Positions 32,393 to 51,158 of a stretch of DNA of 64,000 nt are shown piece after piece. The first letter of the stretch is position 1. Each line of letters starts with the position of its first letter. The notes under the pieces were generated by a model. It saw only the letters and a list, made by a program, of their open reading frames with translations, made no database searches and was not told the DNA's origin. Source of the stretch: Chloroflexota bacterium (GTDB lineage: Bacteria; Chloroflexota; Anaerolineae; UBA4142); NCBI GenBank assembly GCA_016215025.1, contig JACRMI010000139.1, positions 20,862 through 84,861 of the forward strand, in the 5' to 3' direction. Position numbers and translations under genes: made by a program.

Positions 32393-32425
32393 GCGGACCA
32401 AGTCCGCGATTTTTTCTCAATCGGA
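32393..32425. terminator. Bidirectional rho-independent terminator
   Basis: atcgcggac / gtccgcgat 9-bp stem with a 3-nt loop, flanked by aaaaaa and tttttt. Confidence 0.75.
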
Positions 32426-32496
32426 GAAAGCTGTTTTCTTGTCTGAGAGCCGCAAAACGTATCGAGAATGTCCAGAAAACGGGTTTCTGATCGAGT

Positions 32497-32661
32497 TTAT
32501 GGTTTGTGTAAGACGGTCTTTGGTGTCTCTACGGGTTTGACTTGGGGAACCTCGACATCTAGCTCACCGGCCAAACCTTTGACCGCGAGTGCAAAGCCGA
32601 TAAAGATCAACGTGCCAAGTAACGTGTCTCCGACCAAAACCCAAATTGCAAAGTTTTCCAT
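32497..32661 (-). CDS. 54-aa single-TM miniprotein (below the ORF-track cutoff)
   Basis: Hand translation gives MENFAIWVLVGDTLLGTLIFIGFALAVKGLAGELDVEVPQVKPVETPKTVLHKP. A strong SD is present (GGAGGTTAAAATG). It is followed by the 32393-32425 terminator. Confidence 0.4.
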   Translation of the reverse strand: MENFAIWVLVGDTLLGTLIFIGFALAVKGLAGELDVEVPQVKPVETPKTVLHKP

Positions 32662-32800
32662 TTTAACCTCCGTGTCTTGCGTTTATGAATTGTCGCTTGA
32701 CCGGAACTATACAACCAATGCCTGGCTGATACAATCACTTTTCCCGTGATTTAGCATACTGCAAGTTAGGTATTTGGCATACTGTGTTCAAGGTATGGCT

Positions 32801-33448: not shown

Positions 33449-33476
33449 GTTGGGCTATATCTCCAAATTGTAAGCG

Positions 33477-35339: not shown

Positions 35340-36250
35340 TTTTTCGATTGTCCGGCGCGAGTTCGCATCGCGCGGACTGAATCGTACAGCGCATCCTCCG
35401 GCGCAGCAAAGCGATCGAACCCTATCTTGGCGAGGATCGCGCGACCGGTATTGTCCGTGTGCATCGACAACAGCGCCGCACGCAACTGAGTTTTCAAGTC
35501 GGGGTCGAGATTCGGACTGACGACGAGCGGTGAACTGCCGTACGGTCCATAACGCGCAAGGATGCGCGTGCGCGCCGGCAGCGGCGAACCGGATGCGACG
35601 AGAAAGTCGAAAACCTGGTTATCTACCGTTGCGCCGTCCACCAAATTCTCCGCCACCGCTTTGATGGAATTGTCATGGCTGTACGTGAAAATGGTGCGAC
35701 TGAAAAACAGATCGGGCGTAGTCTTGAGCTGCAAAAGTTGATCCACCGCGACAAGTCGTCCGGTGTTTGAAAGCGGATCAGAGAACGCAAACGTCTTGCC
35801 GCGCAAATCGGCGAGCGATTTCGCGGGGCTATCGGAGGGGACGATCAAGTAAGCATAGTACACGATCTCGCCTTTTACTTCCGGTACGACGAGGGCTTGC
35901 ATTCCAAATTGCTCTTGCCCTTCGAGGTACGCGTTTGTGCAAACCACCGCCAGCGCCACGGTGCCTTCGCGCACCAGATTATTGATCTCGTCGTAGGTTT
36001 TGCCTTGCACAATCTGCGCCGGGCGATTTAATTGTTGCCCCAGATACGTGGCAAGGTCTTGATAGAGGGTGAGACTCGTGCGCGGCGAATAGACGGGCGC
36101 GATGGCGATTCGGAGAATGTCCGCGTTCACGGAGGCAACTGCTGGAGTCGGCGCGGACGTGTCCAAATCGCCGAGCCGCACGCGTGGCACGTTCGCTTCT
36201 GATGCACACGCTGTTAAAAAGATAAACCAGATCGCGAGGACATTCTTCAT
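35336..36250 (-). CDS. PhnD-family periplasmic oxyanion-binding lipoprotein (triplet 1)
   Basis: Lipobox FLTAC. Also LRIAIAPVYSP...Y..L..YL...L.RP...V...TY.E...L, the FTYSHDNSIKAV motif, and clear paralogy to 38849-39781. Start is ATG 36250, just after the RR2 stop (the ORF is open to 36277). Confidence 0.8.
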   Translation of the reverse strand: MKNVLAIWFIFLTACASEANVPRVRLGDLDTSAPTPAVASVNADILRIAIAPVYSPRTSLTLYQDLATYLGQQLNRPAQIVQGKTYDEINNLVREGTVALAVVCTNAYLEGQEQFGMQALVVPEVKGEIVYYAYLIVPSDSPAKSLADLRGKTFAFSDPLSNTGRLVAVDQLLQLKTTPDLFFSRTIFTYSHDNSIKAVAENLVDGATVDNQVFDFLVASGSPLPARTRILARYGPYGSSPLVVSPNLDPDLKTQLRAALLSMHTDNTGRAILAKIGFDRFAAPEDALYDSVRAMRTRAGQSKK

Positions 36251-36258
36251 TAATGTAT

Positions 36259-36918
36259 TTACTCTTCCATCATCCAACCGGCTTGAATTGCGTACCGTAC
36301 GAGCGCGGCGCGGCTTTTGAGACCCAGTTTTTCCATGCCGCGCGCGCGGTAGCTTTCGACGGTTTTGACGCTGAGGGCAAGCTGCTCGGCGATTTCTTGA
36401 TTCGTGTGACCCAGGGCGACCAGTTTCAAAACCGCGCCTTCACGTTCGCTCAGATCAATCGGCGCAGCATTCGATTCATTCGCCGGCAACATTCTATCCA
36501 GCAACACTTTGGTGTGCGAAGGATGGATGTACACATTGCCGCGCATCACCGCGCGAATCGCCGAAATCAGTTCGGCGTCGGCTGCGCTTTTGGGACAATA
36601 ACCCGCCGCGCCGGATTCCAATGCGCGTTTGAGGTATCCTTCCTCTTCGTGCATCGTCAGCACCAACACGCGCACATTCGGTTGAGCGCGGCGAACGTGT
36701 TGCAGCACTTGGAGACCATCGCTCTTGGGCATCGAAATGTCGAGGAGAAGCAAGTCGGGCGATTGCTCGCGGACAGCTTTGATGGCTTCGGCTCCATTCG
36801 TCGCTTCACCGACGACGATTAGATCGTCTTGCGCGTTCAGGAGCATTTTCAAACCGGAGCGCAAGACGGAGTGATCGTCGGCAATAATGATTCGCGTTTT
36901 ATTCATTGATTGGCTCAC
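36259..36918 (-). CDS. NarL/LuxR-family response regulator (triplet 2)
   Basis: Receiver domain with DLLLLDISMPKSDG. C-terminal LuxR HTH: LSEREGAVLKLVALGHTNQEIAEQLALSVKTVESYRARGMEKL. Confidence 0.9.
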   Translation of the reverse strand: MSQSMNKTRIIIADDHSVLRSGLKMLLNAQDDLIVVGEATNGAEAIKAVREQSPDLLLLDISMPKSDGLQVLQHVRRAQPNVRVLVLTMHEEEGYLKRALESGAAGYCPKSAADAELISAIRAVMRGNVYIHPSHTKVLLDRMLPANESNAAPIDLSEREGAVLKLVALGHTNQEIAEQLALSVKTVESYRARGMEKLGLKSRAALVRYAIQAGWMMEE

Positions 36919-38852
36919 TGAATCGGAATTTCCACAAACACGCTGCTGCCTTTACCCAACGTGGACTCGATCTTTAATTGTCCGCCGACGAGTTCGGCGC
37001 GCTCGCGCATCCCATGCAATCCCAGTTTCGTTTCATCTTGCGCCGATTCAAGAATCGCGCGCACGTCAAAGCCGCGTCCATCGTCTTCCACAATCGCGAC
37101 GACTGCCGCGCGTTTGCGTTCGACGACGATGCTGACGTTCTTGGCGTGCGCATGTTTGGCAACGTTGGTCAAGGCTTCTTGGATGATGCGATAGAGCGCT
37201 AGTTCGATTTCTGAAGTCAAACGAGTATCGTATTGGAAACCGGTCATTTGCAAATCCACGCCTAATCCATAGTTGGCGCGATAATTCAACGCATAGCGTT
37301 CAAGCGCGGCGGCGAGACCCAAATCGTCGAGTGCTGCCGGTCGCAATTCGCGCGCCAAGCGTTTAACTGATTCGAGCGTTTGCGCCGCAATTTCGCGGAG
37401 CGCATCCAGCCGCGTGCGTGTCGTCAGTTCGCTCGTATCGCCGGCAGCGCGCAAGCCGACCATCAACGATGTGATCGCCTGCCCGGTATCGTCGTGCAAT
37501 TCGCGTGCGATGCGTTTGCGTTCCTCCTCTTGTGCGCCGATCACTTTTTCGAGTAATTGTCCACGCACGCGTTCTTTCTCGCGTAGATCATCCCAGAGGC
37601 GCGCGTTCTCGACGGCGATGCCCAGTTCTTGTCCAACCGCTTCGAGCAGTTTCACTTCGTCCGGACTAAACGCATTCGCATCGCCGCTTGCCACACCCAG
37701 GACACCCAGCACGCGTTCGTGCGATACAATCGGCACGGTCACGTGCGAGGTGATGGTGCGCGCTTCACGCAAGGGACAGCGTTCGGGCAGAGGCGAAACG
37801 ACGACCGACTGTTTGTTCGTAATGGCGACGGTGCAAGGACAACCGTGCAAAGCCGTTTCCGCTTCGCGCAATCCGAGTTCGTGGGGCAAGCCGATCCACG
37901 TGGTCAATTCGATTTGTCCGCTTGCATGGTCGCGCAAAAAGGTCCAGCTCGCGGGCAGATCGAGCGAATCGAGCAATGCGCGTAAAGATCGGTCGAGTGT
38001 TTCGCCGAGTGGCGCGGGCGCATTCACCGCATTCGCCACTGCGTTCAGCGCGGCGAGTTCGCGATTGCGCCGCAAAATCGCGCGCTGGCTCGCATCCAGT
38101 TCGGTGGTCATGCGATTAAACGCCGTCGACAACTTGCCGATTTCGTCGTCGCCCCATTGCGGCGCTTGGCGTGTGAGGTCGCCGCGCGCAACCGCTTGCG
38201 TCACGTCAACCAGCGTCAAGATCGGACGCGTCAGAATGAGTGTGAGCAAATACGCTGCGCCCACGCCCAGAAGCGAAACCATCATCGTCGTCAAAAGCAT
38301 TTGCGAGGTCAGGTCGTTCACGGCGCGATGAACGCTGGCTTCGGTCAAACCGATGCGGGCAATCCCGGCGCGGCCCTCAAAGATCGGCACGGCAATATCG
38401 TGAATCACACCTTCGTCGCTTTGCAACAAGACGCTGTGAGCGCGCTCATCCGACGTCACGGAATTTTTCTCCGCCAGGCCGCGCGGGAATCCTCCATCGA
38501 AGGAATGAACCAAGACGCGATTGTTGGCGTCGAGGATAAAGGCGTAGCGCAGATCGGCGTTATTTTGAATTGTATCTTGGAGAAGCTCATGCAGAGCATA
38601 CGTGTTGTTGATGAGAATAAAATCGGTAGAATGCGCGGCGACATCGCGCGCGATCGAAACGCTGCGCTCTTGGAGTTGAGCGAGCAAGGCGTTGGTCATA
38701 TTGACGCGTACTTGCCACGTCGCGCCCAAGCCAAGCAAAAGCACCAAGGCGAGAACGATGCCCATGATCTTGGCACGAATGCTGGGACGGAGTAACCACG
38801 CGCGCAGATCGTGCCTCAGTTGTTGACTTTTCGAATCCTCGGGTTGAATCAT
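36915..38852 (-). CDS. NarX-type sensor histidine kinase, paralog of 33477-35339 (triplet 2)
   Basis: Same architecture as the triplet-1 kinase. HAMP motif (PILTLVDVTQAVARGDL). GAF with GCPC...(18)..C. H-box RIARELHDDTGQAI. 4-nt overlaps with both neighbours. Confidence 0.85.
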   Translation of the reverse strand: MIQPEDSKSQQLRHDLRAWLLRPSIRAKIMGIVLALVLLLGLGATWQVRVNMTNALLAQLQERSVSIARDVAAHSTDFILINNTYALHELLQDTIQNNADLRYAFILDANNRVLVHSFDGGFPRGLAEKNSVTSDERAHSVLLQSDEGVIHDIAVPIFEGRAGIARIGLTEASVHRAVNDLTSQMLLTTMMVSLLGVGAAYLLTLILTRPILTLVDVTQAVARGDLTRQAPQWGDDEIGKLSTAFNRMTTELDASQRAILRRNRELAALNAVANAVNAPAPLGETLDRSLRALLDSLDLPASWTFLRDHASGQIELTTWIGLPHELGLREAETALHGCPCTVAITNKQSVVVSPLPERCPLREARTITSHVTVPIVSHERVLGVLGVASGDANAFSPDEVKLLEAVGQELGIAVENARLWDDLREKERVRGQLLEKVIGAQEEERKRIARELHDDTGQAITSLMVGLRAAGDTSELTTRTRLDALREIAAQTLESVKRLARELRPAALDDLGLAAALERYALNYRANYGLGVDLQMTGFQYDTRLTSEIELALYRIIQEALTNVAKHAHAKNVSIVVERKRAAVVAIVEDDGRGFDVRAILESAQDETKLGLHGMRERAELVGGQLKIESTLGKGSSVFVEIPIQ

Positions 38853-39781
38853 TGGGCGACATTCACCTGCAATTCGAGCGCGCGCGCTGAATCGTAGATG
38901 CGATCAGAGACGAGAACGAATCGTTCAATCTGCAAGTTTCGCAAAATCGCCGTGCCTTCCGAATCGCTGTTCGCTTGCAACAAAAGTTCGCGCAGCGTTT
39001 CTTTTAATTGTGGACTGAGATTCGGATTAACCACAACGGGTGGAATGCCGAACGCCGGCGACCGATGAATGATGCGGGTGCGTTGTGCGATGGTCGAGTC
39101 GCGCGCCACAAAATAATCGTACACTAAACTGTCCACGCTCGCGCCATCGGCAACTTTGTTGGTCACCGCCTTGATTGCGTTGTCGTGACTGTAGGTGAAA
39201 AAGAGGCGTGCAAAAAATGCTTCCGGTGAACCGTCGAGGGAACGCACCAGTGAGGTGGGATACACGCGTCCCGTGAGTGACATGGGATCGGTGAAGGCAA
39301 ACACTTTGCTTTTCAAGTCGGACATTGAGCGGGCAGAACTATCGGTTGGAACGATCAGCAAAGAATAATACACGGTTTCCCCGTTGACCTGCGGCGCGAC
39401 GAGCAATTCCATACCGAAATCACGCTGACCGATGACATACGCGCTCGTGCAAACAAATGCCAAGTCGACGTCGCCGCTTTTGACAAGGTCATTCACTTCG
39501 GCGTAGGTCTGGCGCTGCACGAGCTGTACCGGGCGATTGAGCTTGTGACTGATGTAGGCGAGCAAGTCGCTGTAACTTTCGACGTTGCCTTTGGGCGAAA
39601 TAACGGCGGCGACGGCGACGCGCAGTGGCTTGGTGTCGTTGGGCGAGTAGGAACTGGTTGACGCCGGATCAATCTCGGAAAATCGAAAATCGGTCTTGGC
39701 TGCCGGATTGCTACACGCCGTCAGAATTAAAACAAGAAAAGCAGCGCACCAGGGTGTTCGGAAAAATAATAAATGCTTCAT
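38849..39781 (-). CDS. PhnD-family periplasmic oxyanion-binding lipoprotein (triplet 2)
   Basis: Lipobox ILTAC. LRVAVAAVISP, FTYSHDNAIKAV. Start MKHLLFF at 39781 has an AAGGAA SD (the ORF is open to 39832). Confidence 0.8.
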   Translation of the reverse strand: MKHLLFFRTPWCAAFLVLILTACSNPAAKTDFRFSEIDPASTSSYSPNDTKPLRVAVAAVISPKGNVESYSDLLAYISHKLNRPVQLVQRQTYAEVNDLVKSGDVDLAFVCTSAYVIGQRDFGMELLVAPQVNGETVYYSLLIVPTDSSARSMSDLKSKVFAFTDPMSLTGRVYPTSLVRSLDGSPEAFFARLFFTYSHDNAIKAVTNKVADGASVDSLVYDYFVARDSTIAQRTRIIHRSPAFGIPPVVVNPNLSPQLKETLRELLLQANSDSEGTAILRNLQIERFVLVSDRIYDSARALELQVNVAQ

Positions 39782-39927
39782 CGATTTAAATTCCTTGGTT
39801 TCTGGTCCTGATTGTCGCATGAATTGGCGCATCAGTCAAAATTGCGTGCTCGCTGTTTGCATTCTGGCATTTGGGGGTCAGAGTCGCGTCTCATTTCAGT
39901 CAAAAGTTCGTTAGCCATTTTTACAAT

Positions 39928-39956
39928 TTGACAAGCGGCGAGTTGGGCAATATAAT
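39928..39956 (+). promoter_or_regulatory. Consensus sigma-70 promoter of the ars operon
   Basis: TTGACA (39928-39933), an exactly 17-nt spacer, then TATAAT (39951-39956). It lies 43 nt before the arsR ATG. Confidence 0.7.
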
Positions 39957-39964
39957 TCAATATA

Positions 39965-39983
39965 GGTTGAATCATTTTCAACC
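39965..39983 (+). promoter_or_regulatory. Candidate ArsR operator (7-5-7 inverted repeat)
   Basis: ggttgaa tcatt ttcaacc lies directly downstream of the -10 box. An overlapping attcaa..ttgaat dyad is at 39956-39973. Confidence 0.5.
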
Positions 39984-39998
39984 CTCAAGGAACAAATC

Positions 39999-40361
39999 AT
40001 GGCTAAAATCGTAACCACTGATCTTGCCAATATTCTAAAGATTCTAAGCGATCCCTCGCGCTTGGCAATTTTCGATCTCTTGATGCAAGGTGTCCAATGC
40101 AACTGTGAATTGGGCGATCAACTCAAGCTGCCAATGAACCTGATCTCTCATCATCTCAAGGTATTGCGCGATGCGGGCTTGGTGGAGGCAGAGCGCGATG
40201 AAACCGACGCGCGCTGGATCTATTACTCGGTGAATCAAAAAGCGATTGAGCAATTGCGCCAACAACTCGATGCGTTTCTGGAGACCAAACGCATCCAACC
40301 GCGTCAACCTGCCTGTGGACCTCGGGTGACTAGCGAAAAAGCGATTGTCACCCGTCCGTAG
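39999..40361 (+). CDS. arsR: ArsR/SmtB-family metalloregulator
   Basis: wHTH: ILKILSDPSRLAIFDLLMQGVQCNCELGDQLKLPMNLISHHLKVLRDAGLV. The CNC motif sits at the position of the As(III)-binding CVC motif. Confidence 0.9.
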   Translation: MAKIVTTDLANILKILSDPSRLAIFDLLMQGVQCNCELGDQLKLPMNLISHHLKVLRDAGLVEAERDETDARWIYYSVNQKAIEQLRQQLDAFLETKRIQPRQPACGPRVTSEKAIVTRP

Positions 40362-40395
40362 TTTTTTTTGCTCGATTACTTCAATGGCTGTTGAA

Positions 40396-41142
40396 ATGAA
40401 ACGCACGAGTCTTTTTCTTTGCACTAGTAATTCTGCACGTAGTCAAATGGCTGAGGCACTGGTGAATCATTTACGCGGCGAGCGATGGCAGGCAGTTTCA
40501 GCGGGCACGCATCCAACGGGCTATGTTCATCCACTCGCCATCGAGGCGTTGAAAGAAGTCGGCATTGATGCGTCGGGCGCGCATTCCAAGTCAGCCGACG
40601 AATTTCGCAATGTGGCTTTCAATGTGGTGGTCACCGTTTGCGATAGTGCGGCAGAAGAATGTCCATTGTGGCTGGGACAAGGTAAGCGAACACATATTGG
40701 ATTTCCTGATCCCGCGCGTGGGACGCTGGAGGATTTTCGATCCGTTCGGGATGGCATGAAGCAGCAGGTGATTGAGTTTTTGGATTCGTTTGAACGGACG
40801 GACACAGACAAAAAATGTTTGAGCTCGCTAATGTCCATCTTTTACTCTCTGTTTTCGCAGAGAGCGAAAGGAGGTAAATCTATGGACATTCAAATTCTGG
40901 GGCCAAGTTGCGCGAATTGCCTCAAACTCGAAGTGCTCGTGATGGAGACACTGACCGAACACGACATTCGTGACGCGCACATCGAAAAAATCACCACGAT
41001 GCGGGAGATGGAACGCCTGATGGCGGGCGAGCCGCCCGGTCTCGTTATCAACGGGCAACTGGTTTGGTCCGGTGGAAAAGAGTTACCGACGCCGGCACAA
41101 ATTGCGGAATGGATTCGCGAGGCGACGGCAACGCCTGCGTGA
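40396..41142 (+). CDS. arsC: Arsenate reductase (LMW-PTP / thioredoxin-coupled type) fused in frame to a small thioredoxin-fold (MTH895/TM0996-like) domain
   Basis: P-loop LCTSNSARSQMAE. Redox Cys pair in VTVCDSAAEECP. C-terminal MDIQILGPSCANCLKLE... is paralogous to 44724-44975. An internal AAGGAGG sits 7 nt before in-frame ATG 40882. Confidence 0.8.
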   Translation: MKRTSLFLCTSNSARSQMAEALVNHLRGERWQAVSAGTHPTGYVHPLAIEALKEVGIDASGAHSKSADEFRNVAFNVVVTVCDSAAEECPLWLGQGKRTHIGFPDPARGTLEDFRSVRDGMKQQVIEFLDSFERTDTDKKCLSSLMSIFYSLFSQRAKGGKSMDIQILGPSCANCLKLEVLVMETLTEHDIRDAHIEKITTMREMERLMAGEPPGLVINGQLVWSGGKELPTPAQIAEWIREATATPA

Positions 41143-41224
41143 GAACGGAACAGTATTCCCGTGATGAAAGCGGGATGAAATGTCGCTTGATGTGACAGGT
41201 CATCCCGCTTTCCTTTTTGAGAGA

Positions 41225-41674
41225 ATGAAAATGATGAATGATTTGCAAGTCACTATTGATAAATTCGTTTTTGGGGTTGCGCGCGGTTATCGCTACAACG
41301 ATGCCGATGTGTGGGCAAAGCACGAAGGCAATCGAGTTCGTGTCGGCTTGACCGATTATCTTCAACAAAAATCGGGCGATGTCGCGTTCGTTAATTCGAA
41401 AGCAGTCGGCACACTGCTCGCCGTGAACGACGAACTTGCTGCGCTCGAAACAATCAAAGTGGACTTGGTCATCCCTGCGCCGCTCGCAGGTAAAATCGTC
41501 GCCGTGAATGAAGCGCTCACGGCGCATCCTGAACTCGTCAACAGTGACCCCTATGGCGCGGGCTGGCTCGTGGAAATCGAGCCGACGAATATCAACGATT
41601 ACGACGCGCTTCTTGATGCCGAAACATATTTGCCGCAGATGCGGACACGCGCAGAATTGGAACGTGAGAAATGA
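41225..41674 (+). CDS. GcvH-family lipoyl-carrier protein (lipoyl-Lys retained)
   Basis: VRVGLTDYLQQKSGDVAFV...LAALETIKVDLVIPAPLAGKIVAVNEAL..HPELVNSDPYGAGWLVEIE aligns with the GcvH core (ESVKA..PVSG.V..VN..L...PEL.N..PY..GW). Start uncertain (41180-41234). Confidence 0.75.
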   Translation: MKMMNDLQVTIDKFVFGVARGYRYNDADVWAKHEGNRVRVGLTDYLQQKSGDVAFVNSKAVGTLLAVNDELAALETIKVDLVIPAPLAGKIVAVNEALTAHPELVNSDPYGAGWLVEIEPTNINDYDALLDAETYLPQMRTRAELEREK

Positions 41675-42069
41675 ACAAGCATGTGATGATTGTGCCGTGC
41701 AGCGGTATCGGCAAAGCGTACGGGAGTGTCGGACGCGACGCGCTGTATCAGGTCATCGAAGAAATGCGCCCCAACGTGACCGCCACGGTTTGCCTTTCGC
41801 TATTGACGCTCGGCGATGCGGATGCGCAAGCGCAAGTGCGCGAGAGTCCGACCATTACCATTGATGGTTGTCCCAAAGCGTGCGCGAAGGTGAATGTCGA
41901 AGCGGCGGGTGGCAAGCCCGTCGCCGAATATCGCGTATTCGATGTCTATCGTGCGCATAAGGAATTGAAAGTACGCTCAGTGAGCAACCTGGGCAAGGCG
42001 GGTCACGAAATGGCACGCATCCTCGCGGAAGAAATCGCGACAAAGGTGGACGAGATCAGTCAACAGTGA
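41671..42069 (+). CDS. DGC-domain (putative zinc-binding) protein
   Basis: VMIVPCSGIGKAYG..., ...CLSLL..., TITIDGCPKACA: the Cys pattern and DGC motif of the DGC family. 4-nt overlap with the GcvH-like gene. Confidence 0.7.
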   Translation: MNKHVMIVPCSGIGKAYGSVGRDALYQVIEEMRPNVTATVCLSLLTLGDADAQAQVRESPTITIDGCPKACAKVNVEAAGGKPVAEYRVFDVYRAHKELKVRSVSNLGKAGHEMARILAEEIATKVDEISQQ

Positions 42070-42119
42070 ACTGTTTACTGTTGACTGTTCACTGCCCACA
42101 GATCACCGGGAGATAAACA

Positions 42120-42821
42120 ATGCCAATCTTGCCGAAGAAAAAAGTCGGACTCATCAGTTGCAGCGGCGAAGAGTTGCCCGCAGGCACGCTCTCACGCATG
42201 GCGACGCTACGCGTATTGGAACAACTACGCCCAAACGATACCGTGACGTTGTGTCTACCGCTCTTTCTCGCGGGCGATGACAAAGAGCGTGCGTTTGCCA
42301 AATTCTATTCAACCATTGCGATTGATGGCTGCGATAAACAGTGCGCCGCGCGCGCAACGGAAAAATATAGCGCGAAACCGACTACAAGCATCATCATCCC
42401 TGAATTTTTGGCGGAGCAAGATTTAGCTGCCCCGAAAACGCGGCGACAGATGGACGCCGCCGGTGAGAGCGCGGCAGATGCGCTCGCGGCAGAGATCGCA
42501 CGCAACGTTGATGAAATCCTTGGCGTGAAACCTGCCGCTGTTGTTGACACCCCCATCACGGAAAGCGAAGGCGTCACCGCGACGTGCAGTTGCGGATCGG
42601 GTATTCCGGTGATGCGCCTGGACATTGCGGGCAAGGGTGTGGAAGTAGTGGCCCTGCCGTTGATTTTTGAAGAGTCGCACAAGGATGGCAAATCGCCTGA
42701 GCAGGTGTTCGACGCGGTCAAGGTTTACAACGTGATTCCGATTGAACTGGAATCTGCCTATCGCGAAGCCATCTTACGTGCTTATGCCGAGTTTGTTCCT
42801 TCGGAGAAACACGTGGAATAA
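42120..42821 (+). CDS. DGC-domain protein with an extra C-terminal CxCG domain
   Basis: VGLISCSGEELPAG, CLPLF, TIAIDGCDKQCA. The C-terminal ~78 aa starting CSCGSGIPVMRLDIAGKGVEVVALPLIFEE... is homologous to the 47334-47645 product. Confidence 0.7.
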   Translation: MPILPKKKVGLISCSGEELPAGTLSRMATLRVLEQLRPNDTVTLCLPLFLAGDDKERAFAKFYSTIAIDGCDKQCAARATEKYSAKPTTSIIIPEFLAEQDLAAPKTRRQMDAAGESAADALAAEIARNVDEILGVKPAAVVDTPITESEGVTATCSCGSGIPVMRLDIAGKGVEVVALPLIFEESHKDGKSPEQVFDAVKVYNVIPIELESAYREAILRAYAEFVPSEKHVE

Positions 42822-42822
42822 A

Positions 42823-43353
42823 ATGCTGCTACAGAGTTATCATCTTAATGTTTTTGCGCCGCCGTGCGAGCCGGGCGCGGAACGGTGGAGCGTCAAAGCC
42901 GCGCTCGATGACGACATTGGTGACGTGTTGCCGTATCTTAATGCAATGCTCAAAGGCGCAATCTACAACCACGCGGCTCACGCGTTAACCTTTCGGATGG
43001 GTGGGCACGCGATGGCAATTCGCCCGCGCGAAATCGCAATTAGCAATCTGCGCGATCAGAATGCGGCGGCGACCGAGGTGCAACATGTCGTAGACATTAT
43101 CAATCGCACCTGGGATCGGCGCACGGAAATTACGCCCAGCATCGAAATGCGCCAACGCCTCAAACCGATGAATGTGTTCAAACTCTTACCTGCAACGAAT
43201 TGCAAGGCATGCGGACAACCGACGTGCTTTACGTTCGCGCTCAAAGTAACGGCGGGTGAAGTTGACATCGAACAATGCGCGTCGCTCTTTACGGAGGCGT
43301 TTCGCGACAAGCGCGAAAAAATGATGTTGCTTTTGGAAAGTAGTGCAAATTAA
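42823..43353 (+). CDS. Fe-S-binding protein with C-terminal RnfB/AcsC-type Cys motif; paralog of 50601-51158
   Basis: LLPATNCKACGQPTCFTFALKV...C matches the putative Fe-S domain (CxxCGxxxCxxFA) seen at RnfB/CFeSP N-termini. ATG 42823 is 1 nt after the previous stop. Confidence 0.65.
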   Translation: MLLQSYHLNVFAPPCEPGAERWSVKAALDDDIGDVLPYLNAMLKGAIYNHAAHALTFRMGGHAMAIRPREIAISNLRDQNAAATEVQHVVDIINRTWDRRTEITPSIEMRQRLKPMNVFKLLPATNCKACGQPTCFTFALKVTAGEVDIEQCASLFTEAFRDKREKMMLLLESSAN

Positions 43354-43356
43354 ATT

Positions 43357-43791
43357 ATGCCGACGACATTCAATTATCACACGACAGTTGCTTGGAAGAA
43401 CGAACACTGGGGGCATCTCGTCTGCGGCAACGGCGCGGCAATGGATTTTTCTGCGCCGCCCGACGCGCACGGACACGCGGGCGTGCTGACACCCGAGGAC
43501 GCGTTCGTCGCCGCTGTAAATACGTGCGTGATGATGATGTTCCTATGGGCGTGCGAGCGGTTCAAGATTCCGCTCGTTTCATATGAATGTTACGCCGAAG
43601 GAACAAAGATTATTGAACTCGACCGCACCGAGTTGTTCACGAAAATCGTCCTTCGTCCCAAAATCCGCGTGAAAGAGTGCGACGAGACACGCGTACGCCG
43701 CGCGCTGGAATCGGCGCAAAAATATTCGCTCGTGGCGAATTCGATCAAATCTGAAATTATACTTGAATCGACGATTGAGGTTGTGCAGTGA
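43357..43791 (+). CDS. OsmC/Ohr-family peroxiredoxin-like protein
   Basis: 144 aa. Has the ..LTPEDAFVAAVNTCVMMMFLWACERF.. motif and the typical OsmC length and Cys placement. Confidence 0.8.
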   Translation: MPTTFNYHTTVAWKNEHWGHLVCGNGAAMDFSAPPDAHGHAGVLTPEDAFVAAVNTCVMMMFLWACERFKIPLVSYECYAEGTKIIELDRTELFTKIVLRPKIRVKECDETRVRRALESAQKYSLVANSIKSEIILESTIEVVQ

Positions 43792-44698
43792 GTTCATCAC
43801 AAGCGCTTTGGGCGCAGGTCAACGAACAAGGACATTTGGTTTTGCCGCCTGAAATGGTCGGTCAGTACGGGTTGAAACCAGGGGCGCGTCTGCGTCTTGA
43901 AAGCGAGACGAACAGCGTTCGCCTGCATCGCCCCGCGCCCAACTTGGCGAAGGTCTACATCTGGGCACTTGCTCCCCAAGGTCATTGAAAATATCAACGC
44001 CTTCCGCGCTTCGCGCCGAACGTGGTCGTATCGCCCCAAGCCCGAAATCGGCATCGCGTTTGTGGCGATGCACCGCAACATCAATGACTTGTCCAAAGTA
44101 ATCGCACTGGGGCGTTCCGTCGGCGCGACGCGTTTTTCCGTCAGCAACGGATTGCCCTATACGGAAGGAATGCGCAAGGAAACGTTGTACGAACGCACCT
44201 TGAAGGACGTTACCTATATGTCGTCGGTGTGGCTGGCCACGCTGAGCTTGCCTAAAAATGGATCTAAACAATTCGACGCGCGAGGCGTTCTTCGCGGCCT
44301 TGTCGAGTGGATGCAGCGTCACTTTTGCAGGAAACAAATTGAGCGGCGCGAACGTTGTGTGTGGTTTTATCGAAGGCGGCGCGATGGCGATTGGCTGGGA
44401 CGGCGGTGTGAGTCCTTGTCCGCCACTGCTGCACAACCACGTCGGTTATCTGCGTCAGCGTAAACGCGCTTTGCACCGACACATCATCGGCAAGGTGAGC
44501 GACCGCGCGTTGATCGATCTCTGGAATGATGCCGACTATGTCGCCTACCGCGAACGGGTGTAAGGATTTGTTTTTGCACCCTGCACCTTTTGTGGTGGTT
44601 GTGAGATGGTGGATGCGAATGAAGAGGATTGCCTCAGTAACAGTTTTCCAGCGTGCGGCGCGTGTCTGTGGGCGCAAGGCGTGATTCAATGTCCGTAA
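43788..44698 (+). pseudogene. Decayed AbrB/SpoVT-domain radical-SAM/SPASM gene (internal deletion, frameshift, in-frame stop)
   Basis: Frame 0 gives the AbrB-like N-terminus (..HLVLPPEMVGQYGLKPGARLRLE..) and stops where the CxxxCxxC core should begin. Frame +1 resumes at ..VIENINAF..IGIAFVAMHRNINDL.. Frame +2 carries the SPASM part (..IGWDGGVSPCP..), an in-frame TAA at 44561-44563, then ..FAPCTFCGGCEM....CGACLWAQGVIQCP. Confidence 0.6.
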
Positions 44699-44723
44699 AT
44701 ATCAATATCTGAAGGAGGTTTGT

Positions 44724-44975
44724 ATGCTTTCCGTTAAAGTGCTTGGTCCGGGATGTGCCAACTGCCAAAAGGTCGAGCAAATCGCTAAAAAGGTGGTTGC
44801 CACATTAAGCGTAGACGCGACTTTTCAAAAAGTCACCACGACGCAAGACATTATGAAGTATCCGATTCTGGCGACCCCGGGACTCGTCATCAACGAAAAA
44901 TTGGTGTGCGCGGGACGGATTCCGACCGAAACCGAAGTGACAACGTGGATTACAAGCGCGCTGGCGACCGCCTAG
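44724..44975 (+). CDS. Small thioredoxin-fold protein (MTH895/TM0996 redox-active disulfide type)
   Basis: 83 aa. VKVLGPGCANCQKVE CxxC motif. GGAGG SD. Located directly upstream of acr3. Confidence 0.8.
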   Translation: MLSVKVLGPGCANCQKVEQIAKKVVATLSVDATFQKVTTTQDIMKYPILATPGLVINEKLVCAGRIPTETEVTTWITSALATA

Positions 44976-45011
44976 CGCAAAAAGAAAATTCTAACCGGAG
45001 GAGTAGAGAAA

Positions 45012-46109
45012 ATGGCTCAAGCAAAGGTGGTGTCGCAACCACAAGTGGGTGTCTTTCAACAACTCTCAATGCTCGATCGTTTTTTGCCATTGTGGATTTT
45101 CGCGGCTATGGCACTGGGCATCATATTGGGTGCCGTCGCACCAGGTATCAAAGATGTCTTCAACGCGCTGTCCATCGGCACGGTCTCGTTCCCGATTGCC
45201 GTTGGATTGTTGTGGATGATGTATCCCGTGTTGGCGAAGGTCAAGTACGAAGAACTCGGCAAGGTCGCACAGGCGTGGGAACAATTCAGTGTGTCGCTCG
45301 TTTTAAACTGGGTTGTCGGTCCCGTCATCATGTTCATTCTCGCCTGGGTTCTGCTGCCTGATCTACCGCATTTTCGCACGGGCCTCATCATCGTCGGACT
45401 CGCGCGCTGTATTGCGATGGTACTCATTTGGAATATGCTCGCGGGGGGCGACAGTGAATACTGCGCCGTGCTCGTCGCCCTGAATAGCATTTTCCAAATC
45501 GTCATGTTCTCGCCACTCGCGTACTTTTTCCTTGTGATCGTGCCAGGCTGGTTCGGGTTACAAGGCACAGTAGTCAACATCGAGATGTCGGACATTGCCA
45601 AAAGTGTGTTGATTTTCCTGGGCATTCCACTGGCGGCGGGCATCATCACGCGGTTCTACTTTTTGCGAACGCGTGGCAAAGAATGGTACGAAACGAAATT
45701 GATGCCACGCCTTGGACCCACGGCGATGATCGGCTTGCTGTTCACGATTGTCGTGATGTTCTCGATGCAAGGCGACAAAATTCTGGCTGCGCCACTCGAT
45801 GTTCTGCGGGTCGCGATTCCATTGCTGATCTACTTTGTCGTCATGTTCTTTGCGTCGTTTGCGCTTTCGCTCTGGCGCAACTTCCCATACGAACTTGCGG
45901 CAACGCAATCATTCACTGCGGCAAGCAACAATTTCGAACTCGCGATCGCGGTGGCAGTCGGCACGTTCACCATCGCGTCGCAAGAAGCGCTCGCGGCGGT
46001 CATCGGTCCGCTGATCGAAGTTCCGGTATTGATTGGCTTGGTATACGTCGCATTATGGATCAAGCAGGCATGGTTCAAACCCGCCGAGGCGAAAGCAATT
46101 GCGGAATAA
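45012..46109 (+). CDS. acr3: ACR3-family arsenite efflux permease
   Basis: LSMLDRFLPLWIFAAMALGI..., the conserved GLARCIAMV segment with the ACR3 Cys, and 10 TM spans. Confidence 0.95.
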   Translation: MAQAKVVSQPQVGVFQQLSMLDRFLPLWIFAAMALGIILGAVAPGIKDVFNALSIGTVSFPIAVGLLWMMYPVLAKVKYEELGKVAQAWEQFSVSLVLNWVVGPVIMFILAWVLLPDLPHFRTGLIIVGLARCIAMVLIWNMLAGGDSEYCAVLVALNSIFQIVMFSPLAYFFLVIVPGWFGLQGTVVNIEMSDIAKSVLIFLGIPLAAGIITRFYFLRTRGKEWYETKLMPRLGPTAMIGLLFTIVVMFSMQGDKILAAPLDVLRVAIPLLIYFVVMFFASFALSLWRNFPYELAATQSFTAASNNFELAIAVAVGTFTIASQEALAAVIGPLIEVPVLIGLVYVALWIKQAWFKPAEAKAIAE

Positions 46110-46130
46110 AATTTTGGGGAGGAGAGGTGA

Positions 46131-47054
46131 ATGCCGCTCCTCCATTGGAGCAACATATTTACGCGCGTGCTCTTTCCAACCGATTTTTCCACCTACGCCA
46201 ATGCGGTCTTTGATTGCTTGCCCGAATTAAAGTCTGCGGGGCTAGAGCAAGTGATCTTGCTTTCTGTGATTCGCGAGAGCGATGTCCCGCTGGCAGACAC
46301 GCCGGTAAATGAAGAATCGTTCGCGCGCATCAGGTGGAGCGTGGAAGAGCAACTGCACATGGCGTAACACGCCTTGGAAGGGCAAGGCATCTCCACGCGT
46401 GCCCGCGTTGAGTATGGGAATCCGGCGCGCGAAATTGTGCCCCAGGACGAACGGGTTGATCTGATTGTGATAGGCGCGCAAGGACAGAGTCTCTTTCAGG
46501 ATGTGCTCCTGGGCAATACCGCATTTGATGTTCTGCGCCTGTCGCCGATTCCAGTGCTCATCGAAAATTGCGATGTGGTGCATGAGCTAGGGCATACAAA
46601 ATGCCGACGGATCTGCCAGCAAACCTTTACGCGCGTCCTGCATCCCACGGACTTTTCCGATTGCGCGAAAGCCGCCTTTCATATTGTCAAACGGCTCAAG
46701 CCCGCCGGTACCGAGCAGGTCATCTTGTTGCATGTTCAAGATGACCACGCGATGCAACATCGTTCTGCCGAACAAATCGCCGAATTTGATGGCGATGACT
46801 ATCAGCGTCTTGAGCAAATGCAACGTGCGCTGACACTGGATGGCCTATCTGCTGCCAAAACCATCGTGCGACATGGCGTCCCATTCCGAGAGACCTTACG
46901 CGTTGCGGACGAAGAAAAGGCAACCGTTATCGTGTTAGGCCTGTACGGTCGCAGTGCCGTGGCAGAGATGGTCTTTGGAAGTACATTCGAGAAAATCGTG
47001 CGTACCAGTCGTCGCCCAGTTTTGGTGGTGCGAATGGAACCTCAGTCAACGTAG
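46131..47054 (+). pseudogene. Tandem universal stress protein (2 Usp domains) interrupted by one in-frame TAA
   Basis: ORFs 46131-46367 and 46374-47054 share one frame. TAA 46365-46367 splits the first Usp domain (...EEQLHMA*HALEGQGISTRARVEYGNPAREI...). The second domain is intact. Confidence 0.55.
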
Positions 47055-47067
47055 GATACAACGCCGC

Positions 47068-47093
47068 GCCGCAGTATGAGGTGCGGCTTTTTT
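47068..47093 (+). terminator. rho-independent terminator closing the arsR-to-usp operon
   Basis: gccgca / tgcggc stem with an 8-nt loop, followed by tttttt. Confidence 0.65.
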
Positions 47094-47125
47094 AGCACAG
47101 CTTGGCTCTACGAAAGGAGGGCATT

Positions 47126-47341
47126 ATGCTATACGTACTCCTTTCGATCTTATTATTCATTCTATCGTTCGTCACAGGGATGCTTGGACTGGGTGTGGCT
47201 TTCATCGCGAAACCTGGGTTGGGCCTGTTCGGCTTATAGCTCAAGCATGTGATTATGCCACGGAGTCTTTGGCTTAACGGCGTGACTGCCATCAGGGGTG
47301 CAGTGCATTTGTCCGTGCCAAAAGGAGGTCACAGTGAGTGA
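47126..47341 (+). pseudogene. Remnant of a TauE/SafE-type permease N-terminus with an in-frame TAG
   Basis: AAAGGAGG SD precedes MLYVLLSILLFILSFVTGMLGLGVAFIAKPGLGLFGL*LKHVIMPRSLWLNGVTAIRGAVH.. (TAG at 47237-47239). It is truncated after about 70 codons by the next gene. Confidence 0.35.
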
Positions 47342-47645
47342 ACGCGGACCTAATCTATGGCGTCAGCCGCAGTGCTGTGGAGGACAACGCGAGGAAATTG
47401 TACAAGTAGACTTGTTTGGCGACGGACACATCGTTGGCTTGGTCGCGCTGGATCAGATTTTCGAGCAATTGTACGCGATGGATCGCGCGCCGGAAGAATC
47501 GCTGAAAGATGAACTCGTGAAGATGGTGGCCGCGAAAAATTACATCGCACCGAAAGCTGAACACCAGTACGCCGCAGGCTTATTGCGCGAGTACGCCAAA
47601 TTCTGCACACAGAAGAAAACACAAAACTCTGGAGGGCACGGATGA
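47334..47645 (+). CDS. Small Cys-containing protein homologous to the C-terminal domain of the 42120 DGC protein
   Basis: GTG 47334 lies 5 nt after AAAGGAGG. The sequence ..QCCGGQREEIVQVDLFGDGHIVGLVALDQIFEQL....APEE...ELV....NYI.......Y..GLLREYAKF parallels CSCGSGIPVMRLDIAGKGVEVVALPLIFEE....SPEQ.... ATGA overlaps the next gene. Confidence 0.55.
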   Translation: MSERGPNLWRQPQCCGGQREEIVQVDLFGDGHIVGLVALDQIFEQLYAMDRAPEESLKDELVKMVAAKNYIAPKAEHQYAAGLLREYAKFCTQKKTQNSGGHG

Positions 47646-48148
47646 ATCTCAAGCCAAAAATTGGAATCCTGTTTGCGCTAGTGATATTGCTCGGTATTAG
47701 TTTAGCCGGTTGCGGTACTGGTAACCCACCAACCCAAACCACGACCGTGAATGCCTTAGCCACTGGCACCACCCGCTCGGTGAATGATTTTAGCGAGTTG
47801 CCCAAAGCAACGGCCAGTCATGTGGAGGTCATTTACTTTCATCGGTCGGTGCGGTGCGAGGCGTGCCTGAATGCCGAAAATTATACCCGGGAAACTCTGA
47901 CCAGATACTTTGCCGATCAAGTGAAAAGCGGATTGATCACACTGCAAGTGTTGGATATGGAAAAACCGGAGAATGCCGCGCTCGTGAAAAAATTCGATGC
48001 CTCGGGTTCGGCACTCTATTTGAGCGCAGTGATTCAGGGCAACGAGTATCTGTGTCCAAATCCCGACATCTGGTTCTACACGAGCAACAAGTACTTGTTC
48101 GTGGACACCCTAAGAAAAAAACTGGCTTCTCTGGTGGAGGGTTCGTAA
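47642..48148 (+). CDS. Thioredoxin-fold lipoprotein resembling ArsF-family (nitrophenyl-arsenical nitroreductase subunit) proteins
   Basis: Lipobox SLAGC. VEVIYFHRSVRCEACLNAENY motif. Translationally coupled (TAATG) to the ArsG-like permease. Family name recalled from memory, not searched. Confidence 0.55.
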   Translation: MNLKPKIGILFALVILLGISLAGCGTGNPPTQTTTVNALATGTTRSVNDFSELPKATASHVEVIYFHRSVRCEACLNAENYTRETLTRYFADQVKSGLITLQVLDMEKPENAALVKKFDASGSALYLSAVIQGNEYLCPNPDIWFYTSNKYLFVDTLRKKLASLVEGS

Positions 48149-48867
48149 TGGACCTGGGTCCCTGGGTGCAGATGGTTCTGACCACTGACAACGCACCCTT
48201 GGTTGGTGCCCTCCTCGTCGGATTGCTTGCCTCCCTTGGTCCGTGCCCCCTGACAACGAATATAGCCGCCCTGGGCTATATCACGCGCGAACTGGCAAGT
48301 CCGCAGCGAGTGTTTCTCACCAGCGGGTTATATGCTCTAGGACGCATCTGTGCGTACGGTGTCCTGGGAGTTGCTCTATTCGCAGCAGGATTACAGATCA
48401 GCCGCGTGTCCCATAGTTTGCAGACCTTTGCGGAAATCGCGCTAGGACCGTTACTGATTCTCGTTGGGTTAGTGCTCTGCGATGTGCTTCGCCCGACGGT
48501 GAGTATTGGCGGCGCGTGGATAGAGAACTGGTCAAAACGAGTCGCGGATTGGAGCAGCGTTGGAGCATTCTTGCTCGGCATTTTGTTCGCGCTCGCTTTT
48601 TGTCCCTACAGCGCCGCACTCTATTTCGGCGTGTTAATGCCGTTGGCGTTCAAATCGCCGGAGGGAATTATTTTTCCCTTTTTATTCGGTCTTGGGACGA
48701 GTGTGCCTGTGCTGGTCATCGGCATACCCTTTGCGCTTGGCGTGAAACGCCTAGCCAGCGCACTAGATCTGCTTGCGCGTGTCGAGCGGGGGATGCGCAA
48801 AGTGGCCGCGCTCGCGTTCATCGGCGTTGGTCTATTTATGGTCTGGAACTGGGTCGCGACGATCTAA
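48148..48867 (+). CDS. DsbD/CcdA-fold membrane protein resembling ArsG-family aromatic-arsenical efflux permeases
   Basis: Start MDLGPW at the TAATG overlap (the ORF is open to 47854). SLGPCPLTTN and FCPYSA motifs. About 6 TM spans. Confidence 0.65.
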   Translation: MDLGPWVQMVLTTDNAPLVGALLVGLLASLGPCPLTTNIAALGYITRELASPQRVFLTSGLYALGRICAYGVLGVALFAAGLQISRVSHSLQTFAEIALGPLLILVGLVLCDVLRPTVSIGGAWIENWSKRVADWSSVGAFLLGILFALAFCPYSAALYFGVLMPLAFKSPEGIIFPFLFGLGTSVPVLVIGIPFALGVKRLASALDLLARVERGMRKVAALAFIGVGLFMVWNWVATI

Positions 48868-50536: not shown

Positions 50537-50600
50537 ACCGTAATGCTCAAAGTGCCTGGGGCAGGTACTGTTCCACCGGCGCAACGTGGGGTACAGTGAA

Positions 50601-51158
50601 ATGTTAGTCGAATATATCACACTCGATCACACGCGTCCGTGTCTCGCGGAACCTGGCAAAATGGTCATCGTGGGTAAACCATCCTGCACCATTGACGCAG
50701 TCTTCCCCCTATTGAACGCGATGTTGCCCAATGTCATCAGCTACAATCCGCGTGCAGGTGCGCTCGTCCTTCGCCGTAAACCCGGGTTCATAACCTTGCT
50801 GACCAATGAAACCATCATCACGCAAGTGAAAGATGCCGATGAAGGACTGGCTCTCCTCGACGCATTACGCGATTTGTTAAATCAAACCTGGGAACAACGC
50901 GAAACAATTGAGCCGCGCAATGAAGAACGCCGCACCCCACGCCCACTCGACGTGTGGGAATTATTGCCGCGCACGAACTGTCGTCAATGTGGCGAGGCGA
51001 CCTGTATGGCATTCGGATTTGCCTTACTCGAAGCGCGGCGTCGGATGGAGGAGTGTGCGCCATTGTGGGAAGCCAATGCATTGGAACAGCGCGAGACCTT
51101 GCGTGGACTGCTGGGCAACTTTGAACCAGTGAGTTCCGTGTGGCGCAAGAGTGAATAA
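50601..51158 (+). CDS. Fe-S-binding protein, paralog of 42823-43353
   Basis: MLVEYITLDHTRPCLAEPGK.. and ..LLPRTNCRQCGEATCMAFGFALL....C parallel MLLQSYHLNVFAPPCEPGAE.. and ..LLPATNCKACGQPTCFTFALKV....C. Confidence 0.6.
   Translation: MLVEYITLDHTRPCLAEPGKMVIVGKPSCTIDAVFPLLNAMLPNVISYNPRAGALVLRRKPGFITLLTNETIITQVKDADEGLALLDALRDLLNQTWEQRETIEPRNEERRTPRPLDVWELLPRTNCRQCGEATCMAFGFALLEARRRMEECAPLWEANALEQRETLRGLLGNFEPVSSVWRKSE

Follow-up and report, generated by a model that had tools for sequence, protein, structure and literature searches.

A GcvH-like lipoyl carrier and two DGC proteins in an arsR-acr3 operon of a Chloroflexota bacterium: a possible dithiol relay in arsenic detoxification

What would a lipoyl protein do in an operon for arsenic resistance? 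An arsenite-induced lipoyl protein is paradoxical, because lipoyl groups are the textbook target of arsenite, As(III); it would have to be either a poison-resistant relay or a deliberate arsenic carrier. We studied this question in a 64,000-nt stretch of DNA from a Chloroflexota bacterium (class Anaerolineae; assembly GCA_016215025.1, contig JACRMI010000139.1, positions 20,862 to 84,861), hereafter called the window. A preliminary description of the window had pointed out a gene for a GcvH-like protein, i.e., a relative of the lipoyl-carrying H-protein of glycine cleavage, followed by genes for two DGC-domain proteins (DGC1 and DGC2), an iron-sulfur (Fe-S) protein and an OsmC-like protein (41225-43791), all of them embedded between arsC and acr3. 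Here an ars operon is combined with an accessory redox system whose protein families are known but for which we found no earlier description, and the gene set was found next to ars genes in at least six phyla. Judging from gene content, fusions and conserved residues, we give a probability of about 0.5 to the reading that it encodes an ArsR-controlled thiol/disulfide relay with a dedicated lipoylated H-protein as its hub. Most likely, the module supplies reducing power to arsenic-detoxifying enzymes.

Operon structure and recurrence beside arsenic genes

The window genes were classified with Pfam and NCBIfam profile searches, which bore out the proposed gene order from arsR to usp with two exceptions, the type of the Fe-S protein (see below) and usp, which carries an in-frame stop. 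The positive strand between 39928 and 47097 formed a single tightly packed unit, and the short gaps and small overlaps noted at first sight were measured as intergenic gaps of 1-50 nt and two overlaps of 4 nt. The promoter, dyad and terminator of the preliminary description were also located: a sigma-70 promoter, TTGACA-17-TATAAT (39928-39956), the sole 12/12 consensus match in a scan of 38500-48500; a perfect 7-bp inverted repeat, GGTTGAA-N5-TTCAACC (39965-39983), between the -10 box and arsR; and an intrinsic terminator (47068-47097) with a GC-rich hairpin (47068-47087) followed by a T-run. Note that the inverted repeat is only a putative ArsR operator, since the same dyad was not found upstream of arsR in the other surveyed loci.

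The first gene, arsR (39999-40361; HTH_5, E = 1.6e-13), codes for an ArsR/SmtB repressor with the cysteines C34-x-C36 and C106, and the second for a fusion of ArsC with thioredoxin (Trx) (40384-41142; LMWPc, 2.8e-18; Thioredoxin_3, 1.4e-15), with a CxxC motif in the Trx domain and an uncertain start at 40345, 40384 or 40396. They are followed by the genes of the GcvH-like lipoyl carrier (41180/41225-41674; GCV_H, 2.5e-30), DGC1 (41671-42069; PF08859, 1.4e-13), DGC2, which consists of a DGC domain and an extra C-terminal domain (42120-42821; PF08859, 4.8e-16), an Fe-S protein with an uncharacterised N-terminal domain and a C-terminal PF04060 domain (42823-43353; 4.3e-12) and the OsmC-like protein (43357-43791; PF02566, 1.3e-13). 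The distal part contains the remnant of a radical S-adenosylmethionine (radical-SAM) gene (43788-44698), a gene for a Trx-like protein assigned by profile matches to the MTH895/ArsE family, with CxxC (44724-44975), the arsenite efflux permease gene acr3 (45012-46109; TIGR00832, 428 bits vs a cutoff of 282.8) and a tandem-USP gene, usp (46131-47054). The 4-nt overlaps join the GcvH stop to the DGC1 start and the OsmC gene to the radical-SAM remnant; the gaps between the DGC2 and Fe-S genes and between the Fe-S and OsmC genes are 1 and 3 nt, respectively. An ArsR with the CxC of an As(III) site, an arsenite pump and an arsenate reductase are encoded in one predicted transcription unit, as in an ars operon, and the CxC cysteines are retained in 65-70 of the 84 ArsR sequences of related loci.

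The preliminary description had made its case depend on a recurrent linkage of these families with ars genes, and such linkage was found. Scanning a DGC2 alignment against ~185,000 species genomes gave 182 confirmed loci, the best 80 of which were analysed, all in metagenome-assembled genomes (MAGs) and none from a cultured host; DGC2 homologues numbered 4,588 at E <= 1e-3, the closest being 67-85% identical. By host, 27 loci belonged to Chloroflexota, 20 to Acidobacteriota, 19 to Planctomycetota and 8 to Aminicenantes; the other six were single ones from Myxococcales, Binatia, Actinomycetes, Eubacteriales, a 'Deltaproteobacteria' MAG and an unclassified bacterium. Of the 80, 71 contained one or more arsenic-specific genes. 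As the loci had been selected via DGC2, only the co-occurrence of the other genes is informative: DGC1 was found in 77-80 loci, the GcvH-like protein in 75-76, the ArsE-type Trx in 70-72 and the OsmC-like protein in 54, together with ArsR (65, by best matches of open reading frames, ORFs), Acr3 (55-56), ArsG (29), ArsF (22-25) and ArsM (15; the single representative tested passed the curated arsenite-methyltransferase cutoff). ArsC was counted by domain architecture, because cross-matches had inflated the tblastn counts, through the fused Trx domain for ArsC and through the C-terminal domain of DGC2 for orf115 (see below); ArsC was present in 27 loci, as 22 separate genes and five fusions to GcvH. 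By our own rough estimate, as distinct from a computed control, an ars locus should lie less than 10 kb from a random gene in well under 1% of cases.

We conclude that the core of the module is the GcvH-like protein, DGC1, DGC2 and Trx, usually with OsmC. A first rival explanation, a housekeeping gcvH and unrelated small genes brought together by chance in an ars operon, might draw on the score of the GcvH-like protein, which is close to the cutoff of the GcvH subfamily model NF002270 (115.4 vs 117 bits). However, the gene set recurs in 80/80 loci, which represent no fewer than six phyla, and it keeps its order and shows 4-nt overlaps and fusions (the 4-nt overlap of the DGC1 start with the GcvH stop was present in the window and in 34 other loci), and gcvT and gcvP were not found among the scanned ORFs of the window. 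A chance neighbourhood, whose probability we consider negligible, is refuted by the survey of the 80 loci. The hosts belong to abundant, rarely cultured lineages of soil, peat and sediment (Chloroflexota, Acidobacteriota, Planctomycetota and Aminicenantes), which probably influence arsenic mobility.

The lipoyl carrier, its fusions and its putative thiol clients

The codon of the expected lipoyl-lysine (41456-41458) corresponds to K93 of a 164-aa ORF starting at 41180. This residue aligned with the lipoyl-lysine of the solved GcvH structures 1onl and 3a8i and was invariant in 68 orthologues; the lipoyl-lysine context was indeed kept, as initially reported, and the residue is probably lipoylated. 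The protein has a conserved N-terminal extension and, besides falling short of NF002270, scored below the curated GcvH cutoff of TIGR00527 (91.3 vs 115.85 bits). The scan of large ORFs of the 64-kb window gave no match to gcvT, gcvP, lpd or a lipoate gene, which agrees with the earlier remark that no other glycine-cleavage gene is nearby, nor did gcvT or gcvP appear among the genes conserved around the 80 loci. Some of the other loci do encode such functions, which supports lipoylation indirectly: a lipoate-protein ligase domain (PF21948, E = 4.4e-35) followed DGC2 directly in 16-17 loci of the acidobacterial type, and five of the 80 loci had a gene for dihydrolipoyl dehydrogenase (Lpd). In two Chloroflexota loci (L001, L006) and two Planctomycetota loci (L047, L065) the Lpd gene directly preceded the GcvH-like gene, and in the acidobacterial locus L048 it lay farther upstream. 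The two Lpd copies tested passed the TIGR01350 equivalog cutoff (539 and 485 vs 408.8 bits), and in L001 and L065 the Lpd, GcvH-like and OsmC-like genes stood side by side.

Domain fusions, confirmed with Pfam, connected the GcvH-like protein with its neighbours. In five different Aminicenantes MAGs ArsC was fused to it (LMWPc-GCV_H; e.g., L074:9141-9989), the H domain taking the place of the Trx domain of the window ArsC-Trx3; in three related loci the two genes were separate, with a 4-nt overlap in at least one. A DGC-GCV_H fusion was present in 20 loci of four lineages. Among the best 150 matches to the GcvH-like protein in a library of 1.84 billion proteins, 14 of the 27 long proteins carried a DGC domain, in one of them in the reverse order GCV_H-DGC (P0440), and an Lpd-GCV_H fusion (P0420) was among the nearest library representatives. 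The other fusions were rarer: OsmC-Trx3 in two loci (L003 and L033), and DGC2-OsmC (L025) and DGC1-DGC2 in one locus each. Single cases such as DGC2-OsmC in L025 and the fusions in L033 were given little weight because they may be due to read-through or assembly errors.

These data suggest the following relay. Arsenite would induce the operon via ArsR, and the GcvH-like protein would be lipoylated on K93, in some lineages by the module-encoded ligase. Its dithiolane would be reduced by NADH via Lpd where the Lpd gene adjoins the GcvH-like gene, and elsewhere by ferredoxin or Fe-S partners, i.e., the PF04060 protein in the window and a protein like the HdrA N-terminal domain plus a ferredoxin in other lineages. 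The dihydrolipoyl arm would then re-reduce the Trx-type ArsC, in the window through the fused Trx domain, and could have as further clients the MTH895/ArsE-type Trx, the OsmC-like thiol enzyme and the DGC1/DGC2 pair, and As(III) would exit through Acr3. The direction of electron flow and the terminal substrates are those that we infer.

Of the two roles put forward in the preliminary description, a chaperone or sink for As(III) and an electron relay, we favour the relay, and the chaperone less, because of the ArsC-GcvH fusions, the adjoining Lpd genes, the OsmC-Trx and DGC-OsmC fusions and a known precedent: in the hydrogenosomes of Trichomonas vaginalis, OsmC is supported by the L and H proteins in a role apart from glycine cleavage (as cited in PMC5384416). 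This L/H/OsmC system is, by analogy, the closest precedent for the module. It uses an H-protein as lipoyl redox carrier between Lpd and a thiol enzyme of the OsmC family, as the module would. In contrast with it, the module is ArsR-controlled, lies beside acr3, arsC or arsM and includes an ArsE-type Trx and two DGC proteins that are obligatory; the second cysteine of its OsmC-like protein is a different one, this protein is dispensable in one lineage, and Lpd was present in only 5/80 loci.

Regarding ArsC, the window protein is a reductase of the low-molecular-weight protein tyrosine phosphatase (LMW-PTP) type with a three-cysteine cascade, like the Trx-coupled reductases of the pI258 type. 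Residues C9, R15 and S16 of its CX5R(S) P-loop and the pair C82 and C89 were invariant in the ArsC alignment and recall the Cys10/82/89 triad of those reductases; its score was below the equivalog cutoff (91.7 vs 174.3 bits). Bacterial arsenate reduction is known to use thioredoxin, glutathione/glutaredoxin or mycothiol/mycoredoxin, and a route coupled to a lipoyl protein, if true, would be a further reductant coupling for it. The operon would resemble the arsT/arsX and arsRBOCT operons in that an ars operon brings its own reducing system, and would differ from the Trx-coupled ArsC systems in its proposed reductant, a lipoylated H-protein (fused to ArsC in five loci) instead of thioredoxin reductase plus Trx. 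ArsC cannot be a universal client, since it was near only about one third of the loci and was absent from the operon of L081, a close relative of the window; both points weigh against the relay as formulated here.

The OsmC-like protein was a less canonical enzyme than its family name suggests. Ohr and OsmC have peroxidatic and resolving cysteines ~60 residues apart (PMC5384416). The OsmC-like protein does not have such a pair: C57, at the peroxidatic position, and C78 were invariant and are 21 residues apart, and the canonical resolving position was Ser in 45 of 46 orthologues. A P-E-D motif ten residues upstream of C57 was conserved, where Ohr has its catalytic Glu, and the nearest solved relatives were the uncharacterised proteins Ta0195 and VCA0330. 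The OsmC assignment stands for the fold (PF02566) and for C57, and not for a canonical Ohr/OsmC peroxidase; with the resolving Cys replaced by Ser and a different Cys (C78) invariant, the protein is, by its sequence, a member of a poorly characterised third group of the family.

These features bear on a second rival, in which the module would be a lipoyl peroxidase chain and nothing else: electrons would pass from Lpd to the H-protein, the Trx-like protein and the OsmC-like protein and would clear peroxides formed under arsenic stress, the chain being co-regulated with the ars genes and having no arsenical as substrate. In mycobacteria, NADH reduces Lpd, which passes electrons to a lipoyl domain (DlaT), a CxxC adaptor (AhpD) and a thiol peroxidase (AhpC). 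The same chain logic is proposed for the module, with the differences that its carrier is a free H-protein and not an E2 subunit, that the adaptor and terminal enzyme are of other families and that the context is arsenic. A purely antioxidant chain would fit this mycobacterial design and that of L/H/OsmC in PMC5384416, which also names lipoyl proteins as physiological reductants of Ohr/OsmC; C57 with its P-E-D motif and the existence of OsmC-Trx3 fusions are consistent with it as well. However, OsmC was missing from 26/80 loci, among them nearly all of the acidobacterial ones, while GcvH, DGC1 and DGC2 persisted; the canonical resolving Cys is absent; the ArsC-GcvH fusions link the H domain to arsenate reduction itself; and many hosts (Anaerolineae, Aminicenantes) are probably anaerobes with minor peroxide stress. 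We consider this explanation unlikely. The relay is itself burdened by the first two of these points, the OsmC-like gene being nearly absent from the acidobacterial type (3/20 loci).

The electron input of the proposed relay differed between lineages: Lpd in some, the PF04060 protein in the window and its close relatives, and an HdrA-like protein with a ferredoxin in others. The Fe-S protein of the window, described at first as RnfB-type, fits another type better. Its Fe-S domain had as best solved match the N-terminal [4Fe-4S] domain of the large subunit of the corrinoid Fe-S protein (PDB 9fzy_F, E = 2.8e-10), against E = 0.47 for RnfB; the RnfB models gave 24.1 bits vs a cutoff of 68.7, and PF04060 is C-terminal in the window protein, whereas RnfB has it at the N-terminus followed by ferredoxin domains. 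Since only 7/80 loci carried it, the Fe-S protein is accessory and not core; its homologues were mostly from Chloroflexota by the names listed. A paralogue with PF04060, 34% identical to the operon copy, is encoded at 50586-51158 on the positive strand, and L081 has the same paralogue beside TauE and two FmdE-domain genes. In 22 loci, mostly acidobacterial and largely the same as those with DGC-GcvH fusions, a 125-aa Cys-rich protein was always followed by a small ferredoxin (e.g., L034:8051-8428). This protein (labelled C5) had no Pfam or NCBIfam match, and its profile matched the N-terminal Fe-S domain of HdrA (7bkb_A, E = 1.6e-4). A relationship between C5 and the DGC proteins was discarded (hhalign probability 0.07%).

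Fe-S partners of this kind raise a third rival, the handling of sulfur or thio-arsenic compounds as in the sHdr-LbpA systems, in which a lipoate-binding protein, Hdr-like Fe-S proteins and Cys-rich carriers would process sulfane sulfur or thioarsenates. The module is similar to sHdr-LbpA in having a dedicated GcvH-like protein with its own ligase and Hdr-related Fe-S partners (the HdrA-N-terminal-like protein and ferredoxin of 22 loci), and the sHdr-LbpA systems have their own lipoate assembly genes; the habitats, by record titles, included peat, sediment and sulfidic cave samples. Nevertheless, no HdrB/CCG, DsrE, TusA or rhodanese gene was noticed in the conserved surroundings of the 80 loci, DGC proteins are present instead of sulfur carriers, the top 50 matches of the DGC fold search included no DsrE-like protein, and the linkage is to arsR, acr3, arsC and arsM and not to sulfur-oxidation genes. 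Sulfur handling therefore appears very improbable to us.

The DGC pair and the arsenic-carrier alternative

DGC1 and DGC2 scored well above the PF08859 cutoff of 27 bits (51.3 and 59.2 bits, respectively). The four cysteines typical of the family, the DGC motif included, were kept in DGC1: C10, C67 and C71 were conserved in 100% of the sequences and C41 in 79%. Its predicted model (predicted local distance difference test, pLDDT, 92.9) was a four-stranded flavodoxin-like sandwich; C10, C41 and C67 come one after each of consecutive strands, and the next helix begins with C71. A Foldseek search with this model gave no significant solved relative, only generic flavodoxin-like matches (best E = 0.03, TM-score <=0.5), and a hidden Markov model search with the DGC profiles gave no match among PDB sequences. 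The DGC2 C-terminal domain has an invariant C156-x-C158; the DGC2 model was moderate (pLDDT 68), its fold matches were uninformative, and a search of a plasmid collection with DGC2 gave no match. Two assignments of the DGC fold were rejected: DsrE-like, with no DsrE among the top 50 fold matches, and ArsC-like, with LMW-PTPs matching weakly and a DGC vs ArsC hhalign probability of 0.2%. Our guess is that the DGC pair forms a Cys4 site for a metal, an Fe-S cluster or As(III), which the lipoyl arm would serve.

Such a site is central to the fourth rival, in which the module would be an As(III) carrier or chaperone. The reduced arm would bind As(III) in the form of a cyclic dithioarsinite and bring it to DGC1/DGC2, at their Cys3/Cys4 sites, and to the CxC C-terminal domain; from these it would go on to Acr3, ArsP or ArsM, in the way that ArsD passes As(III) to ArsA. 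The module would also shield the metabolic lipoyl enzymes, and Lpd and the Fe-S parts would only keep the arm reduced. That As(III) binds vicinal dithiols with high affinity is established chemistry, and As(III) is, by the ArsR CxC, the predicted inducer of the operon. The placement of cysteines in the DGC1 model would suit a shared metal or metalloid site, the DGC-GcvH fusions (20 loci) bring such a site within reach of the arm, and the transporters Acr3, ArsG and ArsP were the commonest ars neighbours. A DGC gene of unknown function also follows arsP and arsE in an ars operon of Pseudodesulfovibrio mercurii (bioRxiv 10.1101/2022.10.17.512643), in this case without GcvH. The likeness to the ArsD metallochaperone consists of small Cys-rich proteins encoded beside an arsenite pump; the module proteins have no relationship of sequence or fold with ArsD, the pump is Acr3 and not ArsA/ArsB, and a lipoyl cofactor is involved. 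Against a carrier, the H domain in the ArsC-GcvH fusions is at the position of Trx, that is, of the reductant; a passive carrier needs no OsmC-like, Trx-like, ferredoxin or HdrA-like Fe-S proteins; and the chelates of As(III) with dihydrolipoyl groups are very stable, so their handover to a transporter needs an unexplained step. We regard an As(III) carrier as a tentative alternative, the most serious of the four.

The properties of the lipoyl arm and of the DGC pair also provide points against the thiol/disulfide relay. As(III) classically attacks dihydrolipoyl groups, and a relay built on them would be expected to be poisoned by its own inducer unless it is protected; this sensitivity suits an As(III)-binding role no less well. 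No part of the module is more constant than the DGC pair, which is unexplained by the relay model; it has neither a significant solved structural relative nor profile similarity to ArsC. To these we add that the window operon encodes neither Lpd nor ligase, that two of its genes (radical-SAM and usp) are broken, and that the evidence is sequence-based, with MAGs as the only source of comparison loci. A bolder extension of the relay, which we think improbable, is that the arm has the DGC proteins as its true catalytic clients and that these form a new family of arsenic enzymes dependent on dithiols; in anaerobes, a new ferredoxin-to-lipoyl reductase would charge the H-protein. Candidate activities are those of reductases or transferases for arsenicals that no known bacterial reductase handles, e.g., methylated, aromatic or thiolated pentavalent ones, and the ferredoxin-to-lipoyl reductase would combine DGC domains, the HdrA-like Fe-S domain and ferredoxin. 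If true, this extension would place a further reductant coupling of arsenate reduction alongside thioredoxin, glutaredoxin and mycoredoxin and would be the first role in metalloid resistance for a lipoylated H-protein.

The C-terminal domain of DGC2 was found again downstream of the terminator, in a second ars-related unit of the positive strand (47298-48867). Its first gene, orf115 (47298-47645), encodes a Cys-rich N-terminus and a domain homologous to DGC2 residues 156-230 (BLASTP, E = 3e-8). It is followed by genes for an ArsF-family protein with a lipoprotein signal and CxxC (47642-48148; NF040494, 81.7 vs a cutoff of 60 bits) and an ArsG-family membrane protein similar to CcdA/DsbD (48148-48867; NF040495, 232.6 vs a cutoff of 200 bits). 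By sequence features, the unit resembles a relay that passes thiol-disulfide exchange across the membrane to a Trx-like protein outside the cytoplasm, whereas the two families are named 'nitroreductase subunit' and 'efflux permease', which is hard to reconcile with such a look.

Literature context and neighbouring genes

The statement that this gene set had no described ars function agreed with our search, in which neither a GcvH/DGC/OsmC ars module nor a lipoyl-coupled ArsC was found described in the openly searchable full-text literature (subscription-only articles excluded). A 2018 review of ars genes (PMC6205960) lists ArsO and ArsT as frequent ars neighbours whose exact function is undeciphered, and a term search of the review gave no relevant match for lipo-, arsX or thioredoxin reductase. 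If the lipoyl relay is true, it would be a bacterial case of an H-protein acting outside glycine cleavage; it would also set the DGC domain (PF08859), ArsE-type thioredoxins and one OsmC subfamily in a functional context for the first time.

The distal half of the window operon appeared altered. The in-frame TAA of usp (46365-46367) splits the gene into pieces of 78 and 226 aa. The radical-SAM gene is dead, as already recognized in the preliminary description: compared with the intact orthologue (L001:4558-5811), the remnant of this AbrB-like/radical-SAM/SPASM maturase has a deletion of residues 59-174, which include the CX3CX2C motif, as well as one frameshift and two in-frame stops. An interrupted usp and a dead radical-SAM gene suggest that this half of the operon is decaying. 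The radical-SAM gene was present in 13-14 loci, including all eight of Aminicenantes, and has been lost from L081. The intact L001 radical-SAM/SPASM enzyme has an AbrB/MazE-like N-terminal domain and is related to the 'tungsten cofactor oxidoreductase maturase' family, with a score below the cutoff of its model (279.9 vs 380 bits).

A few loci presented particular features. In L005, a MAG labelled Acidobacteriota, the module proteins were 71-89% identical to those of the window (Acr3 89%, OsmC 85%), which may reflect a recent horizontal transfer or mis-binning; the window is otherwise Anaerolineae-like. Downstream of acr3 and arsP, L081 encodes a cation-diffusion-facilitator transporter whose weak Thioredoxin_3 match may stand for a fused Trx-like domain (L081:12341-13492). 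Downstream of the module, Acidobacteriota have genes for TolC-like and HlyD-like proteins, a duplicated ABC ATPase and two ABC-2 permeases (e.g., L034:11533-18102), that is, a tripartite efflux system with no known link to arsenic.

On the other side of the window operon, a set of molybdopterin oxidoreductase genes in ttrBCA order abuts it and is divergently transcribed (negative strand; the region spans 26738-39832). It comprises a 4Fe-4S subunit (31424-32401), an NrfD-like membrane subunit (30104-31348) and a TtrA-like catalytic subunit of 1114 aa (26738-30082), whose score with the TtrA model, 473 bits, is far below the cutoff of 1750; the set probably encodes a respiratory-type enzyme. On its arsR side there are two tandem copies of a group consisting of a PhnD-like binding protein, a HAMP/GAF histidine kinase and a LuxR-type response regulator. 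Just after the operon terminator, a 37-codon ORF (47126-47239) with G-x-x-G membrane motifs is a putative N-terminal fragment of a TauE/SafE-type permease. The arsenic-related region ends at a kdpA-kdpB potassium pump with its KdpD sensor kinase, on the negative strand (55396-62445).

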